Assembly: GCA_000146465.1 (NCBI GenBank)
Contig: CP001942.1
DNA: 64,000 nucleotides
Strand: one strand, 5' to 3'
The position numbers were made by a program, and so were the translations under genes. Numbering within the stretch: the first letter of the stretch is position 1; each line of letters begins with the position of its first letter. The notes under the pieces are model-generated. The model had not been told where the DNA came from, ran no database searches, and worked only from the letters and a program-made list of their open reading frames with translations. Below are positions 13,560 through 36,526 of the stretch, piece after piece.

Positions 13560-15407
13560 TTAAAACCTTGCTCCTATCCTCATCTCCAGCTTGGATATTG
13601 CTTCATCCTTCCTTCTAAGTTTGTCGGCCATTGCTGAATAAAGGCTTTTTATTCTTTCTTCGTTCTTACGGCACTCGTTGAATCTTTTTTCCAGCATCAT
13701 GTTGCTTGCCTTAAGAGCCTTATTCTCCTTTCCTTTCTTCTCGAGGTATTCCTTGCAGACCTCTAGATCTTTTCTAGCAATGCTGAACTCCTTGGTGAAG
13801 TCTTCCAGGAACTTCATTGTTCTTCTGTGCATCACATCTTTGTTGTTCTCGGCAAAACCCATGGCCTCGTTGGTCTCCTTGTCCATCACACGGATCTTCC
13901 TAACCAGATCCTTGTATGAGATCTTGAACCTTCTTACCATCTCGTCAACCGGAACCACTGCGTTGATTCCAAGAGTTTTCAGAAACTTTCTACTGTCTTC
14001 TGTAACTGCAACAATCTTTCTATACTCCTCCTCTTTGCTTTTGAGCTCTTTGAGTTCAAGTCGTAATGTATTTATCTCTTCTTCTGCTTTGTCTTCTAGT
14101 CCTTTCTCTCCAAGAATCTTTCTTGCCAAGCTTATCTTGGAATCTATGCTACGAGCCATTCCTTCAATCTCACCCAATTTTTTGTCACATTCCCGCCCTT
14201 TTTCTTGCAAAAGGTCCTTCAGAAACATCTCAAGCTCTCGAGATCTCTCCAGATCCGAGGTAAAGCCCAAGCATCTTTTCCGAAGTTCCTCTACCTCCTC
14301 TAAGACCACTGCTTTTTCTTTTTTTTCTTTCTCCAGCTCTGCCTTAATCTTGTAGACTTCCAAGCCTCCATATCCATCCTGGGACACTTTATATGACAGC
14401 GCCCTTTTCTCATTCTCACAAACCTCAAGTCTTTTCTTTAGCTCTCCTCGAGTGGCTTTCAAGTTCTCAACTTCTCTTTTTAGTTCTTCGTTCTTTAGTG
14501 CTAATTCTTGTTTGTCTCTGGTTTCTCGCATATAGTTCTCTCCCATCTCCTTCAGGTACAATTCATTCGACTGTCTTTGCCTGTAAATTTCCTCATATTC
14601 CTTTTCCATACTTTTGTAGTGCTCTCGAATCTGGCTTATCTCTGCTTCTTTGAGATTCATCTTTTCTTCAAAAGACCTCACAATACTTTGAAGTTGAGAA
14701 ATCTTGTTGTTGTATTCATTTCTTTCTCGATCTCGTTCATACATTATCTGGTCTTTTTCTTTATTGCTATTCAGAAGAGCATTCTTGTAGGACATCAGTT
14801 CCTTTTCAATTTGGACCCTTTCTTCCTTTTCATATGCCATCTTTTCAATCAAGTTCTTCTGCTCATCAATCGCACTCTTACTTCTGTTGAAACACTCTCC
14901 CAGCATCCCATTCTCCTCTCTCAGCTTGGTATTGATTCCATTGACACTCTCTAGATGCTTGAGAAGCCTGTTGTTTTCCTCTTCAAGCATCGATATCCTA
15001 TTAAGATGTTCCTGCAAACCATTCTTCAGCCGGTCCTCCGCATCCTCTTTCTCCATCCTCATCTTCTTGATCATTTCGTCCATTCCCTCAATTCTTTTGC
15101 TGAGCTCCTCGTTCTCTCCCTCAAGAATGTCTATCGATCTCTTACTATCAAGAAGAAGCTTCTGAATGTCTTCCTGGATGTTGACCCCCGAACTTGCTTT
15201 ATAATGAGAAAGTTGATGCTTGATCTCAAAGTTTTCGTTTCGAAGCTCCTCGATCTCCCTCTCATAATCCTTAACTGTCTTAATCCTCTGCAAAGGATTG
15301 AACTGAAGCGAAAATGAGTGTTCTTCCATCACACAGTAAGGGTTACCACCCTCAACAAAAATCCTGGGAATTCCAAAAGAGGAGAGACCGTCCTTTACAA
15401 ATATCAC
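13560..15407 (-). CDS. Long coiled-coil protein (615 aa), function unknown
   Basis: Continuous heptad-rich E/K/L composition over about 500 residues. The many antisense ORFs in this interval are low-complexity artefacts of this gene. Confidence 0.6.
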   Translation of the reverse strand: MIFVKDGLSSFGIPRIFVEGGNPYCVMEEHSFSLQFNPLQRIKTVKDYEREIEELRNENFEIKHQLSHYKASSGVNIQEDIQKLLLDSKRSIDILEGENEELSKRIEGMDEMIKKMRMEKEDAEDRLKNGLQEHLNRISMLEEENNRLLKHLESVNGINTKLREENGMLGECFNRSKSAIDEQKNLIEKMAYEKEERVQIEKELMSYKNALLNSNKEKDQIMYERDRERNEYNNKISQLQSIVRSFEEKMNLKEAEISQIREHYKSMEKEYEEIYRQRQSNELYLKEMGENYMRETRDKQELALKNEELKREVENLKATRGELKKRLEVCENEKRALSYKVSQDGYGGLEVYKIKAELEKEKKEKAVVLEEVEELRKRCLGFTSDLERSRELEMFLKDLLQEKGRECDKKLGEIEGMARSIDSKISLARKILGEKGLEDKAEEEINTLRLELKELKSKEEEYRKIVAVTEDSRKFLKTLGINAVVPVDEMVRRFKISYKDLVRKIRVMDKETNEAMGFAENNKDVMHRRTMKFLEDFTKEFSIARKDLEVCKEYLEKKGKENKALKASNMMLEKRFNECRKNEERIKSLYSAMADKLRRKDEAISKLEMRIGARF

Positions 15408-16393: not shown

Positions 16394-17005
16394 CTAGTAG
16401 TCCCATCTGTAAAACAATCCATCTTTCATCTTTACAGCTCCTACAAACACCAAGCTCTTCAAGTGTCTATCGAAGTCTTCATTCAAAGCTTCCTCCGTAT
16501 CTGTCCCACGTCCTATTGCATCGGCAGCTAGTCTTTTCAGTTCTTCATAGTTGAATTTCTTGGTAAGCAGTTTGTAGATGATGGTGCTTGGATTTTCTTT
16601 GGATAAATACAACTCCGGGCTGAGTAAGGAAGATCTTATAGAAGCAAACACATCCGGCATAAATGAAAGCTCTACACCCCTGTTGCTGTATTCTCCCGCC
16701 AGCCTCCTCTCTATGTCTTTATAGTTCTCGATTCTTTCGCTCTTTTCTTCATCCGAACACATCACAAACTCAAATCTGTAGTGCTTGAACATTCTCATCT
16801 TGTAGAAGAAAAACTCAAAATTCACCACATAAAACAAGATCTCTTTTCCAAGTAGAAAAAGCTCTTTGAAGGCCTTCAGCGTAACATCTCCACTGGTAAA
16901 TTTCAAGACATACTTCTTTTCCGGACATATCACATAGGTTCTCTGCAGATCAGAAATAACCTCTGCATCGGGAACATTCACTGTTGAAACTATCTTTATG
17001 ATCAT
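16394..17005 (-). CDS. Hypothetical protein
   Basis: 203-aa ORF. No recognisable motif. Confidence 0.5.
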   Translation of the reverse strand: MIIKIVSTVNVPDAEVISDLQRTYVICPEKKYVLKFTSGDVTLKAFKELFLLGKEILFYVVNFEFFFYKMRMFKHYRFEFVMCSDEEKSERIENYKDIERRLAGEYSNRGVELSFMPDVFASIRSSLLSPELYLSKENPSTIIYKLLTKKFNYEELKRLAADAIGRGTDTEEALNEDFDRHLKSLVFVGAVKMKDGLFYRWDY

Positions 17006-17122: not shown

Positions 17123-17635
17123 CTACTCCTCTAGTCGATTACATATCCAATTTATTCCTTTGTGGACACCTAGGAATGACCTTGACTCCTCGTAAAGAAT
17201 AAACTCGATCTTTCCATGGCTTATCTCGTCGCAGGTCCTCTTAAGCTCTTGCACAGACTCGTTTCCATAGATGTTCGACTTGCATAGTACAACAATAACA
17301 TCTTTTGTCTTTGTGGCATCTTCTCCAATAAGCGTAATACACTTCTCGACAGAGGTTTTGTTGTCTGCATCCACAGCAAAGACGACTGCAGCAGAAAGGC
17401 CCATGTGGATCCCTCTTATCTCATAAAGGTCTGCATTGTCATCCAATGACTGGAAAATGAGCTCCATTCCATTTGCAATGCATGTGTCTTCTGAAAATGG
17501 CCGGAGAGATTTGTCTTCCTTGTAGTTCGAGACAGAGTGCTTCAGAACATGTCTCTGGTCTTCCTCCAGCCCCAGAAGAGCAACAACATACTTCTTTCTT
17601 GTGGCTCCACAGCATAGGGAAAGGACCCAATCCAT
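17123..17635 (-). CDS. ARF/ARL-fold protein with degenerate nucleotide-binding motifs (putative pseudo-GTPase)
   Basis: Colinear with Arf1. The P-loop position reads ALLGLEEDQRHVL instead of GLDAAGKTTIL. DVGGQ is replaced by DDNAD and NKQD by CKSN. VVFAVDADNKT (compare IFVVDSNDRER) and the C-terminal GINWICNRL (compare GLDWLSNQL) are retained. Confidence 0.5.
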   Translation of the reverse strand: MDWVLSLCCGATRKKYVVALLGLEEDQRHVLKHSVSNYKEDKSLRPFSEDTCIANGMELIFQSLDDNADLYEIRGIHMGLSAAVVFAVDADNKTSVEKCITLIGEDATKTKDVIVVLCKSNIYGNESVQELKRTCDEISHGKIEFILYEESRSFLGVHKGINWICNRLEE

Positions 17636-17705: not shown

Positions 17706-18623
17706 TTATTGCTCCAGAAGATAACCCACTTCCTCTTTCAGAGTTCTACTCTTTTCTATAAGTATGGAAACCGCCTTCCTTAACAGGTACAGGGGATCCA
17801 GAAATACGCTGTTGATTGTAAAAAGAAAATGGTCCGACTTTCTTCCAATGAATACCTTGTCCTTAAACTCCTCATGCCTGAGTGCTTCCCTGCTCATGGT
17901 GTCCAGACGGGGATTACTTACATAAGCCTTCATTCTCCCATCGCTTTGCTTTACTTCTATGACTCCTTCTGAAAAGCATTTTTGAATCCTAAAGGCATCC
18001 TCATCAAAGAAGTCTCCTATCTCAATCAGCGGGAGAAGTCTGTACGTTGCAGGGCATACAGGACTCCATTTTGCATGTGTTTTTCCTGTATTCTTGGTGC
18101 AGACAACCTCGGCACTTATTTTCTGCCCATGGGCTAGCTTGAACATGAGTACTCTGCTGCTGAACTTGGCATTCTTTATCATTTCCCTCTGATTTCCTAA
18201 TGGAATCCATTTGATATCATCAGAGTACACATTCAGAACATCCTTATTTTCATTCTTAACATCAAGAGAAAACTTGAGGGAGTTCCTCTCGTTCATCTCC
18301 CCCTCCACAAACTCAAACATCTCGGGATCCACTTCCAGTGGAATTAGCCCTAGTCTATGTGCTATGAATTCATCCGGAAATACACTCTCGTTTTCCTTCA
18401 GAAAGACATCCTTGATGGCCATAGTCGGAACATCGTTGCAGAGTATGCGTCGAAGTGCATTGGCAAAGGAGCAGTCGACATTAATAAGATCAAACTCTAG
18501 CTTCTCCTTAGAGTACTCTGTTATCCTCAGCTCAACCTCCTCCACCATCTGCTCAAACGACTTTGTCTCTCCGCAATATAAGTCTGTGATTGTCTCCCTT
18601 CCCAACTTGTATATCTTCGACAT
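17706..18623 (-). CDS. RPC40: DNA-directed RNA polymerase I/III subunit AC40 (Rpc40)
   Basis: RpoA/Rpb3-like N-terminal dimerisation domain FDLINVDCSFANALRRILCNDVPTMAI. HAKWSPV motif. No Rpb3-type Cys cluster, so AC40 rather than Rpb3. Confidence 0.75.
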   Translation of the reverse strand: MSKIYKLGRETITDLYCGETKSFEQMVEEVELRITEYSKEKLEFDLINVDCSFANALRRILCNDVPTMAIKDVFLKENESVFPDEFIAHRLGLIPLEVDPEMFEFVEGEMNERNSLKFSLDVKNENKDVLNVYSDDIKWIPLGNQREMIKNAKFSSRVLMFKLAHGQKISAEVVCTKNTGKTHAKWSPVCPATYRLLPLIEIGDFFDEDAFRIQKCFSEGVIEVKQSDGRMKAYVSNPRLDTMSREALRHEEFKDKVFIGRKSDHFLFTINSVFLDPLYLLRKAVSILIEKSRTLKEEVGYLLEQ

Positions 18624-18654: not shown

Positions 18655-20619
18655 TCATGTTCTCTCCTCCATCGGTCCCATGGTAAACACCTTGACCATT
18701 CCGTCGGCTCCTCCAGTGGCATACTTACTTCCATCCTCATCAAAAGATATCCTATTGACCCGCTTACTATGCTCCTTACTTCTTGTCCTAATGGTAAACT
18801 CTCCTCCTTGGAGATCTGCAGTTAACACCTCCCCAGATTCAAGTCCTATCAGGAGAAGATACTTCTTAGGTGAAAAGCTTAAGGACGTCACCTCGTACTC
18901 AAATCTAGACTCCCATTTCATTCCAAATTCAGGACCTTCATATACAAATATACTTCTGTCTCGAGAACACGTGGCGAGATATTTTGAATCATGGCTGAAG
19001 CTACAATCCCACACAACTCTCTTATGGTCCCTTAGTCTTTGAAAGAACTTAATGCTTTTGCTAACATTATAGATTGACACACTCTTGTCTTTGGAGGCTG
19101 CTGCCAGGTACTTTCCATCCCGTGAAAATACCAACCTTTCGATCCCATAGTCGTGTACTTCTATGTAATCCATCAGCTCAAAGTTTCTGTTCCATACAAA
19201 AATCCCTGAGAATTTCTTCAGCGACGACTTGTTACAGGAAACAATGAAATCCTTAGACACGGCAACATCAGATACATCAAAGTAGTGTCCATAGACCTTT
19301 CTTATCTCGTTGAAGGTGGCCACAGACAATAGCTGCTCATTGAGTGATTCAAAAGTAAAGTCTTCCAGAACTACGTTTGTTAAAGACAGTTCGGCACAAA
19401 CAGCTGCAAACTTCAAACTGTCGATATCACAAAAGAAGTCGTGTATAGACCTTCTCTGCCGGGAAATACCCATTTCCTCCAATGACTTACTCACGTCTTT
19501 TTCCTTATTTTCCACACTCAAGCATGTCATATAAAACACCTGTGTAGGCTCATAGATTCTTAAAATTGTTTCCTGTGCAGAGCTTATGAATTGAAGGTTC
19601 TCGGTATTGAGAAACCTTGCCGAGGTTAGCCCATATCCATGCTTCTGTGGCCTACCTACCTCATGCCCCTTGTAGAATATCCGGGACGTCATATCAAGCG
19701 AGGCCGTTAGGAGAAACTCATCTCTCCAGTCGATAGACCTCACTTCGTCGATATGGCCCGAAATAAAATTCTCCAGAACATCTCCAAACTTGTAAAACCC
19801 TCCAGAATTCGATTGTCCTACAATATAGTCTCCAGTCATTAGAACGTTAAAGAAGGCTCCTTCTCCGCCCAGTCTCATCACATCTTCCCACCTTCCAGAC
19901 TTCTTCTTCCAGTGGATTATCGACCCATCTCCAGATGAGCTAAGTAGATCTCCCTCTCTTGTCCACCACAGTCCGTAAACCCAGTCTGTGTGCCCATTAA
20001 GGGTTTGAATATGCTCAATCCATCCTTCTCCTTCAATAACTCTCCATATCTTTATGGTTTCGTCCTGTGACGCCGTGGCAATGTAAGCCTCTCCATCAAT
20101 GGAAACAGACTTGATGTCTTGGATGCTGTCTCTGTGCCCTTCAACTTCATCCCACAAAACACAACTGCCTTTTCCCCATAGCACATAAACACTCCCCTTT
20201 CTGCTCCCAATAAATGTTCTGTCACAAATCGTTGTTAAACACGTAGGAATCCATGTATTTTCGACTTCTCCCGTAATCACATTTCTGTCCATGTCATATA
20301 CGAAGGTTCTATCCATCGTACAGAACGCAGCACATGATTCCCTCATAAAACCAACCGCTTCAATACATCCTTCAAAGTCATGCTTCCTAACATCTCCGTT
20401 TCTTATTATATATCCCCTCCCATTCACATCTCCTGCCACTATCGTTCCATGGCTACATTCGACCGCATTCACATCGCCGTCCATACAAACTACAGAAAGA
20501 ACCTTTCTTTCGTCAGTTATGACTACATTCGACCTAGACCCATAGGCCATTCCATTCCCAAATGCTGCAGAGACCTTTGGCTTTCGTGTGCAGCCGGCAG
20601 ATATGAAAACAGAGTCCAT
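18655..20619 (-). CDS. ELP2: Elongator complex subunit 2 (ELP2), WD40 protein
   Basis: Multiple WD repeats. TASLDMTSRIFY...GRPQKHGYGLTSARF...ETILRIYEP parallels yeast Elp2 ATSLDQTTRLFAPW...SRPQIHGYDMICVE...EKILRSFDLP. C-terminal LESGEVL and GGADGMVKVF also match. Confidence 0.7.
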   Translation of the reverse strand: MDSVFISAGCTRKPKVSAAFGNGMAYGSRSNVVITDERKVLSVVCMDGDVNAVECSHGTIVAGDVNGRGYIIRNGDVRKHDFEGCIEAVGFMRESCAAFCTMDRTFVYDMDRNVITGEVENTWIPTCLTTICDRTFIGSRKGSVYVLWGKGSCVLWDEVEGHRDSIQDIKSVSIDGEAYIATASQDETIKIWRVIEGEGWIEHIQTLNGHTDWVYGLWWTREGDLLSSSGDGSIIHWKKKSGRWEDVMRLGGEGAFFNVLMTGDYIVGQSNSGGFYKFGDVLENFISGHIDEVRSIDWRDEFLLTASLDMTSRIFYKGHEVGRPQKHGYGLTSARFLNTENLQFISSAQETILRIYEPTQVFYMTCLSVENKEKDVSKSLEEMGISRQRRSIHDFFCDIDSLKFAAVCAELSLTNVVLEDFTFESLNEQLLSVATFNEIRKVYGHYFDVSDVAVSKDFIVSCNKSSLKKFSGIFVWNRNFELMDYIEVHDYGIERLVFSRDGKYLAAASKDKSVSIYNVSKSIKFFQRLRDHKRVVWDCSFSHDSKYLATCSRDRSIFVYEGPEFGMKWESRFEYEVTSLSFSPKKYLLLIGLESGEVLTADLQGGEFTIRTRSKEHSKRVNRISFDEDGSKYATGGADGMVKVFTMGPMEERT

Positions 20620-36443: not shown

Positions 36444-36525
36444 GAAGGTGTGGCCGAGTGGTTATGGCGTTGGTCTAGAAAACCAATGGGCACCGCCCTC
36501 ACAGGTTCGAATCCTGTCACCTTCG
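36444..36525 (+). tRNA. tRNA-Ser (anticodon AGA)
   Basis: Cloverleaf readable by eye. Acceptor GAAGGTG/CACCTTC. D-arm GCCGAGTGGTTATGGC. Anticodon stem TTGGT/ACCAA with loop CTAGAAA. Long variable arm GGGCACCGCCCTC. T-arm ACAGG-TTCGAAT-CCTGT. Discriminator G. Confidence 0.8.
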
Positions 36526-36526
36526 C

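Follow-up and report, generated by a model that had tools for sequence, protein, structure and literature searches.

Positions 17123..17635 of the 64,000-nucleotide stretch of DNA analysed here (contig CP001942.1; hereafter, the window) hold, on the minus strand, an open reading frame (ORF) whose product shows 100% identity to Eint_010470, which is listed as an 'uncharacterized protein' and encoded on chromosome I of the microsporidian Encephalitozoon intestinalis ATCC 50506. Each entry of the ORF list runs from the first start codon that follows a stop; therefore, a longer form of the protein is impossible and its N-terminus is M-D-W. An earlier reading of the bare sequence (hereafter, the original prediction) had taken this product for an Arf-family GTPase derivative that is unable to bind nucleotide in the canonical way, i.e. 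a candidate pseudoGTPase. The descent from Arf and the pseudoGTPase interpretation are supported by the analyses described below, whereas the lack of nucleotide binding is predicted from the replaced motifs. The gene very probably belongs to a microsporidian family already described under the name ArlEM. The features of the gene are as follows:

17123..17635, minus strand: coding sequence of Eint_010470, an uninterrupted ORF of 170 codons plus the stop codon at 17123-17125; very probably the ArlEM member of E. intestinalis.
17591..17635, minus strand: N-terminal extension, residues 1-15 (MDWVLSLCCGATRKK), which lacks Gly2, ends in the basic patch R13-K14-K15 and has a low predicted local distance difference test score (pLDDT).
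17609..17614, minus strand: Cys8-Cys9 (codons TGC TGT), candidate S-palmitoylation site and putative anchor; Cys8 occurs in 15/15 sequences, Cys9 in the Encephalitozoon/Ordospora set.
17549..17572, minus strand: G1 (P-loop) equivalent, G22-L-E-E-D-Q-R-H29 in place of GLDAAGKT, a conserved acidic loop.
17504..17506, minus strand: position of the G2 (switch I) Thr, occupied by Leu44; Arf1 IPT-IGF aligns with K-S-L-R-P-F.
17396..17449, minus strand: G3 and switch II/alpha-2 equivalent, residues 63-80, with S63-L-D-D-N67 in place of DVGGQ.
17270..17284, minus strand: G4 equivalent, C118-K-S-N-I122; NKQD aligns with K119-S-N-I122, and Cys118 is invariant in the family.
17180..17191, minus strand: G5 equivalent, E149-E-S-R152 in place of (T)C-A-T; CAT aligns with E150-S-R152.
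17132..17158, minus strand: Arf-type C-terminal helix motif G160-I-N-W163-I-C-N166-R-L168, aligned with Arf1 G-F-D-W-L-T-T-H-L.

Full-length orthologues of 170 aa, sharing 59–87% identity with Eint_010470, were found in E. cuniculi (ECU01_0590), E. romaleae, E. hellem and Ordospora, and remoter ones (23–38% identity) in Nosema, Vairimorpha and further assemblies. Two alignments were built from them, one of 8 Encephalitozoon/Ordospora sequences and one of 15 microsporidian sequences, the metagenomic relative P0012 being left out of the latter. Correspondences of the G boxes with Arf proteins were taken from the hhalign alignment of the 15-sequence profile to a small Arf profile made from P. falciparum Arf1, yeast Arl1 and mouse Arl3.

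The AlphaFold2 model of Eint_010470, calculated with the 8-sequence alignment, has a mean pLDDT of 71.7 and a predicted template modelling score (pTM) of 0.76. Its secondary structure elements follow the order b1-a1-b2-b3-a2-b4-a3-b5-a4-b6-a5, with a six-stranded sheet and five helices, which is the arrangement of the Ras-superfamily G domain. Fold searches with the model yielded small GTPases, and Foldseek distinguished between their families, placing Arf1, Arl1, Arl6, Sar1, Cin4, Arl3 or Asgard Arf at all of ranks 1–17, with E of about 1e-6 and template modelling scores of 0.5–0.7. At the sequence level, the 8-sequence profile searched against 1.84 billion representative proteins retrieved P0012, a metagenomic protein of 176 aa, over its full length (E 9e-7), and P0012 in turn matches the Pfam Arf family with an E of 1e-21 (77.6 bits), compared to 19.7 bits for Ras and 20.5 bits for SRPRB (E 3e-4, below the family cutoff). 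A profile with P0012 included matched exclusively Arf, Arl and Sar1 chains in the PDB (best E 2e-6), in a search that is partly circular. Because the PDB search with P0012 left out was not significant, we compared the 15 microsporidian sequences directly to the small Arf profile using hhalign, and obtained a probability of 86%, an E of 4.7e-6 and a score of 42.0 over 167 columns. The real score lies ∼14 standard deviations above those of 100 column shuffles (12.4±2.1, maximum 22.2), and the reversed alignment scored 12.9. A scan of the 64-kb window found no other Arf-like ORFs, and there is therefore no internal control. Fold searches, profile-profile comparison and the transitive link through P0012 all place Eint_010470 in the Arf family. 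The original prediction had described the protein as colinear with Arf1 over its whole length, and both the 167-column alignment and the topology of the model, with Arf chains at the top of the Foldseek list, agree with that description; the family indicated by hhalign and by the P0012 link is Arf and not an unrelated one, even with no direct Pfam match.

The nucleotide-binding motifs are a different matter, as all five G boxes of the Arf profile are replaced in Eint_010470. For the P-loop, the correspondence of GLEEDQRH to GLDAAGKT given in the original prediction is exact. It was likewise correct that DVGGQ and NKQD are gone, although the residues named as their substitutes were out of register, DDNAD by two residues and CKSN by one, relative to the hhalign equivalents S63-L-D-D-N67 and K119-S-N-I122; no motif survives in either register. 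The C-terminal W-x-x-N-x-L helix was also recognized correctly: it is part of G160-x-x-W163-x-x-N166-x-L168, which aligns with its Arf1 equivalent and, via P0012, matches Arl3 G-M-N-W-V-C-K-N. Gly2 is indeed absent, no in-frame start codon being located upstream of M-D-W. Compared to canonical Arf and Arl proteins (Arf1, Arl1, Arl3; PF00025), Eint_010470 thus retains the fold, the order of elements, the colinearity over ∼167 residues and the C-terminal G-x-x-W-x-x-N-x-L helix, but has no GxxxxGK[ST], G2 Thr, DxxGQ, NKxD, G5 or Gly2, lies below Pfam detection and, by prediction, does not alternate between GTP- and GDP-bound states.

Description of these motifs as 'eroded', as in the original prediction, is accurate insofar as every G box is replaced, but is misleading if decay is meant, since the replacements are not random and conservation within the family peaks at the P-loop equivalent. 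Most Encephalitozoon/Ordospora members have GLEEDQ[RK]H at this place, Nosema and Vairimorpha have GLE[ED]D[IV][KQ]x, P0009 has GLESDQEY and P0012 has GIDEENKR. The residues C8, G22, D26, L31, E49, S95, C118 and H140 do not vary among the 15 microsporidian sequences. Within the Encephalitozoon/Ordospora set, beta-3 and the helix equivalent to switch II likewise rank with the best-conserved parts: in the segment 63–80, L64, D65, D66, D69, L70, E72, I73, R74, I76 and H77 do not vary, and the same applies to G160, W163, C165, N166, R167 and L168 of the C-terminal motif. Replaced motifs are kept across Encephalitozoon, Ordospora, Nosema and Vairimorpha, and intact ones were not seen in the orthologues; since the orthologues share the replacements, these are not the result of sequencing error. 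Comparison of Encephalitozoon pairs yielded a dN (nonsynonymous divergence) of 0.07–0.10 and a dS (synonymous divergence) of 1.4–1.9, so close to saturation that the resulting dN/dS of ∼0.05 is approximate. For the adjacent AC40 gene dN is 0.10–0.12, above that of Eint_010470. The gene is real and under strong purifying selection, far beyond what is expected by chance.

A feature that the original prediction did not mention is the N-terminal cysteine. Cys8 is invariant, and the Encephalitozoon/Ordospora group, in which the N-terminus M-x-W-x-x-S-L-C-C is conserved, has the pair Cys8-Cys9. Orthologues from Nosema and Vairimorpha begin with MG-x-x-C-S-C, that is, they combine Gly2 with Cys. Cys8(-Cys9), together with the basic patch, is therefore a likely S-palmitoyl anchor standing in for the lost Gly2. 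The pattern of N-termini points to lipid anchoring by palmitoyl alone in E. intestinalis, and by myristoyl plus palmitoyl in Nosema and Vairimorpha. Eint_010470 contains no transmembrane segment: the highest mean Kyte-Doolittle hydropathy over 19 residues is 1.33, inside the core of the domain, and that of the N-terminal 19 residues is 0.57.

Every named match of the family among 1.84 and 5.8 billion proteins was microsporidian; three sequences, P0009, P0012 and P0014, come from metagenome or SRA contigs, and two of them are located as follows:

1491-2021 of L001 (JGI metagenome 3300042655, contig Ga0466727_247496): P0012, 176 aa, found by profile search.
3124-3555 of L006 (Logan SRR32665172): P0014, 143 aa, C-terminally shortened, with the N-terminus MGIFNCCGCG.

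P0012 carries the marks of the family, namely Gly2 and Cys8, the acidic P-loop GIDEENKR, NVSGG for DVGGQ, CNSD for NKQD and a C-terminal G-I-N-W-M-C-E-R-I. Possibly it represents a less-derived ArlEM whose lineage has yet to be sampled, and it could help to trace the origin of the family. Its 2.3-kb contig holds no other clear gene, and the large homologue search with P0012 as a query returned only P0012 itself. P0014 adjoins AC40-like and CID genes, as in Encephalitozoon; a 170-aa gene in the same locus is not a paralogue of Eint_010470. In databases, the V. necatrix orthologue already bears the label 'ADP-ribosylation factor-like', and the one from E. hellem is entered in UniRef as 'ADP-ribosylation factor 6'.

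A family with these properties is already known. The section on it by Vargova, Majnusova and Elias (BMC Biol 2026, PMC13393502) describes ArlEM, 'Arl specific for Eumicrosporea', as a "conserved putative pseudoGTPase" that all Eumicrosporea possess and their relatives lack. According to the same section, ArlEM proteins possess one to three N-terminal Cys that are predicted to be S-palmitoylated, Gly2 is a predicted myristoylation site in those of Nematocida, Anncaliia, Vairimorpha and Nosema, and G1–G5 are disrupted in most members; the family is placed among class-i pseudoGTPases, i.e. those that bind no nucleotide (PMC13393502). AlphaFold 3 is stated there to have failed at placing GTP in the pocket of an ArlEM, and some members to have lost secondary-structure elements, with which the C-terminal shortening of P0014 fits (PMC13393502). 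Eint_010470 and its orthologues agree with this description in the Arf-family G domain, the N-terminal Cys, a Gly2 that Nosema and Vairimorpha have and Encephalitozoon lacks, and the disruption of G1–G5. They also resemble no single pan-eukaryotic Arf paralogue, as Arf1, Arl1, Arl3, Arl6 and Sar1 score about equally. There is no difference of substance, the locus being very probably a member of the family. It is thus very probable that Eint_010470 is the E. intestinalis orthologue of ArlEM, a single-domain putative pseudoGTPase of the Arf family, reportedly specific to microsporidia, in which the G-domain fold is kept and all five nucleotide motifs are replaced, and the finding as such is already known. 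A literature search with the locus tags returned no papers apart from the one on ArlEM.

Several observations weigh against the reading of Eint_010470 as an Arf-family pseudoGTPase identical with ArlEM. A Pfam scan of the protein gave no family, even at E≤10; ten further orthologues scanned in the same way gave no Arf match. A single-sequence phmmer search of the PDB returned no meaningful match, the Encephalitozoon/Ordospora-only profile only a non-significant Arf one (E 0.75), and with the 15-sequence profile lacking P0012 Arf-family chains led the list, also without significance (best E 0.11). Confidence of the AlphaFold2 model is low for residues 1–13 and 45–50, and the pLDDT is 48–60 across the equivalents of switch I, interswitch and switch II. 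A basic residue stays at the position of the P-loop Lys (R28, or K in orthologues), so that non-canonical ligand binding is conceivable. Finally, the equation with the published ArlEM set relies on matching descriptors rather than accessions.

Judging from the motifs and from the published AlphaFold 3 result, Eint_010470 would be a class-i pseudoGTPase. We propose that S-palmitoylation of Cys8/Cys9 beside the basic patch could hold the protein on a membrane, replacing the GTP-controlled myristoyl switch of Arf proteins, and that the acidic substitute of the P-loop, G-L-E-E-D, may fill or block the former phosphate site, leaving a single fixed conformation. The fixed domain would then act as a constitutive, nucleotide-independent membrane adaptor that offers its conserved face, formed by beta-3 and the switch-II equivalent, to a partner. 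The palmitoylation, the membrane location and the adaptor role of Eint_010470 are all suggestions of this scheme. A more daring version of it, to which we attach a low probability, is that the pocket has been rebuilt: G-L-E-[ED]-D would serve as a built-in phosphate mimic, possibly together with R/K28, locking one effector-binding conformation, and a palmitoylation cycle at Cys8/9 would replace the GTP cycle; it is also conceivable that the protein is all that is left of ciliary Arl13, reused without cilia. Class-i pseudoGTPases such as CENP-M and the pG domains of p190RhoGAP (Stiegler and Boggon 2020, as cited in PMC13393502), differ from Eint_010470, which is of Arf ancestry. The latter, moreover, stands alone as a putatively lipid-anchored domain, rather than being built into a larger protein or a kinetochore complex.

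The alternative that survives best concerns ancestry only and is compatible with the ArlEM assignment: ArlEM may be a relic of the ciliary Arl13, kept after loss of the flagellum and repurposed, although we consider this rather unlikely. ARL13B has a Cys pair near the N-terminus followed by basic residues, like Eint_010470. Neither has the catalytic Gln in switch II, and the corresponding position is occupied by Gly in both P0012 (NVSGG) and Arl13B (DLGGG). The non-significant top PDB match of the profile without P0012 (E 0.11) was Chlamydomonas Arl13B, and predicted-palmitoylated N-terminal Cys are reported in the paper on ArlEM to be typical of Arl13 and Arl16, rozellid Arl13 included (PMC13393502). 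In its section on ArlEM, however, that paper leaves the origin of the family unsettled; Arl13 was considered but is not among the three best hits of the authors' HHsearch (PMC13393502). In our searches, P0012 is closer to Arl3, Arf1, Arf6, Arl6, Arl2 and Arl8 than to Arl13B, which is outside the best 60 PDB hits of P0012, and pairwise scores calculated for the N-terminal half gave a mixed picture, at noise level. In addition, Arl13 has an intact P-loop and NKxD, binds GTP, carries a long C-terminal coiled-coil/proline-rich extension and plays a ciliary role, whereas Eint_010470 ends at alpha-5, nothing being added behind the G domain, and cilia are absent from microsporidia.

A class ii/iii pseudoGTPase or atypical GTPase, in which non-canonical motifs would still make a working nucleotide switch, is an improbable alternative. 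Such a function could account for the R or K that most orthologues have at the P-loop Lys position, and for the P-loop equivalent being the most conserved segment. However, the second Gly of the P-loop is changed to Gln, Ile or Val, the Mg-binding Ser/Thr to His, Asn or Ile, and the loop itself is filled by three acidic residues; G2 Thr, G3 DxxG, G4 NKxD and G5 are all absent, and GTP could not be placed by AlphaFold 3 in the pocket of the published ArlEM (PMC13393502).

The original prediction had allowed for an ARF, ARL or SR-beta derivative. The Arf family is borne out by the profiles and P0012, and an extremely divergent microsporidian SR-beta (beta subunit of the SRP receptor) is very improbable. 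Microsporidian SR-beta does have an Arf-related G domain from which G1–G5 are lost in most Microsporidia, and eumicrosporean SR-beta, devoid of these motifs, is described as very hard to detect (PMC13393502); P0012 also shows the weak match to Pfam SRPRB mentioned above (E 3e-4, below the family cutoff). Every eumicrosporean SR-beta identified in that study has an N-terminal transmembrane region (PMC13393502), but hydropathy of Eint_010470 stays below the transmembrane range (maximum 1.33; N-terminal mean 0.57), its orthologues in Nosema and Vairimorpha begin with MG-x-x-C-S-C, and P0012 scores 77.6 bits on Arf versus 20.5 on SRPRB. SR-beta was dropped as a candidate on account of the missing transmembrane segment. 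The least probable alternative, with next to no weight, is that the likeness to Arf is convergent or misassigned, the true affiliation being with a different family of small GTPases (Rab/Ras/Rho) or with an unrelated flavodoxin-like fold, because the top 17 Foldseek hits are all of the Arf family, the P0012-including profile matches exclusively Arf, Arl and Sar1 in the PDB, colinearity by hhalign extends over 167 columns with the Arf-type C-terminal motif included, and the score of P0012 for Arf greatly exceeds that for Ras.

As an ArlEM, Eint_010470 probably does something essential in parasites of medical and agricultural importance, with no counterpart in the host. An essential role is probable in view of the reported presence of the family in all Eumicrosporea, of its very high expression in S. 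lophii, in which ArlEM is stated to be the second most abundant protein-coding transcript (PMC13393502), and of a dN below that of the neighbouring RNA polymerase subunit. The protein also provides a clear-cut case, from nature, of an Arf-fold pseudoGTPase that stands alone, an idea that has been published and is here confirmed for E. intestinalis. Relative to the section on ArlEM in PMC13393502, what is added here is the observation that the acidic P-loop is the best-conserved segment, the figures for dN/dS and synteny in Encephalitozoon and the possibly less-derived metagenomic relative P0012.

Genes and other features in the remainder of the window include the following:

17706-18623, minus strand: Rpb3/AC40-like RNA polymerase subunit, directly upstream of Eint_010470.
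18655-20619, minus strand: double WD40 protein of 654 aa, upstream of Eint_010470 on the same strand.
16394-17005, minus strand: ORF of 203 aa without a Pfam family, immediately downstream of Eint_010470.
13560-15407, minus strand: long coiled-coil ORF, given in the ORF list from a GTG start with 615 aa.
36444-36526, plus strand: tRNA-Ser (anticodon AGA), the only tRNA found by ARAGORN in the 64-kb window.

The gene order CID protein, WD40, AC40, Eint_010470 orthologue, 202–204-aa protein and DnaJ is common to E. cuniculi, E. romaleae and Ordospora, and in E. intestinalis a DnaJ/zinc-finger protein is encoded on the opposite strand near Eint_010470. Intergenic gaps on the upstream side, around the WD40 and AC40-like genes, are just 31–117 bp, which is typical of gene packing in Encephalitozoon. 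In E. cuniculi, E. romaleae and Ordospora, the 202–204-aa genes in the slot syntenic to the 203-aa ORF are likewise without a Pfam family, and no relationship was detectable between the 203-aa protein and the product of a 202-aa gene near P0014. Orthologues of the long coiled-coil ORF have been called at 588–600 aa; since these are shorter, its true start is probably a downstream ATG. The orthologue from Ordospora has a weak match to Cnn_1N, the centrosomin motif.
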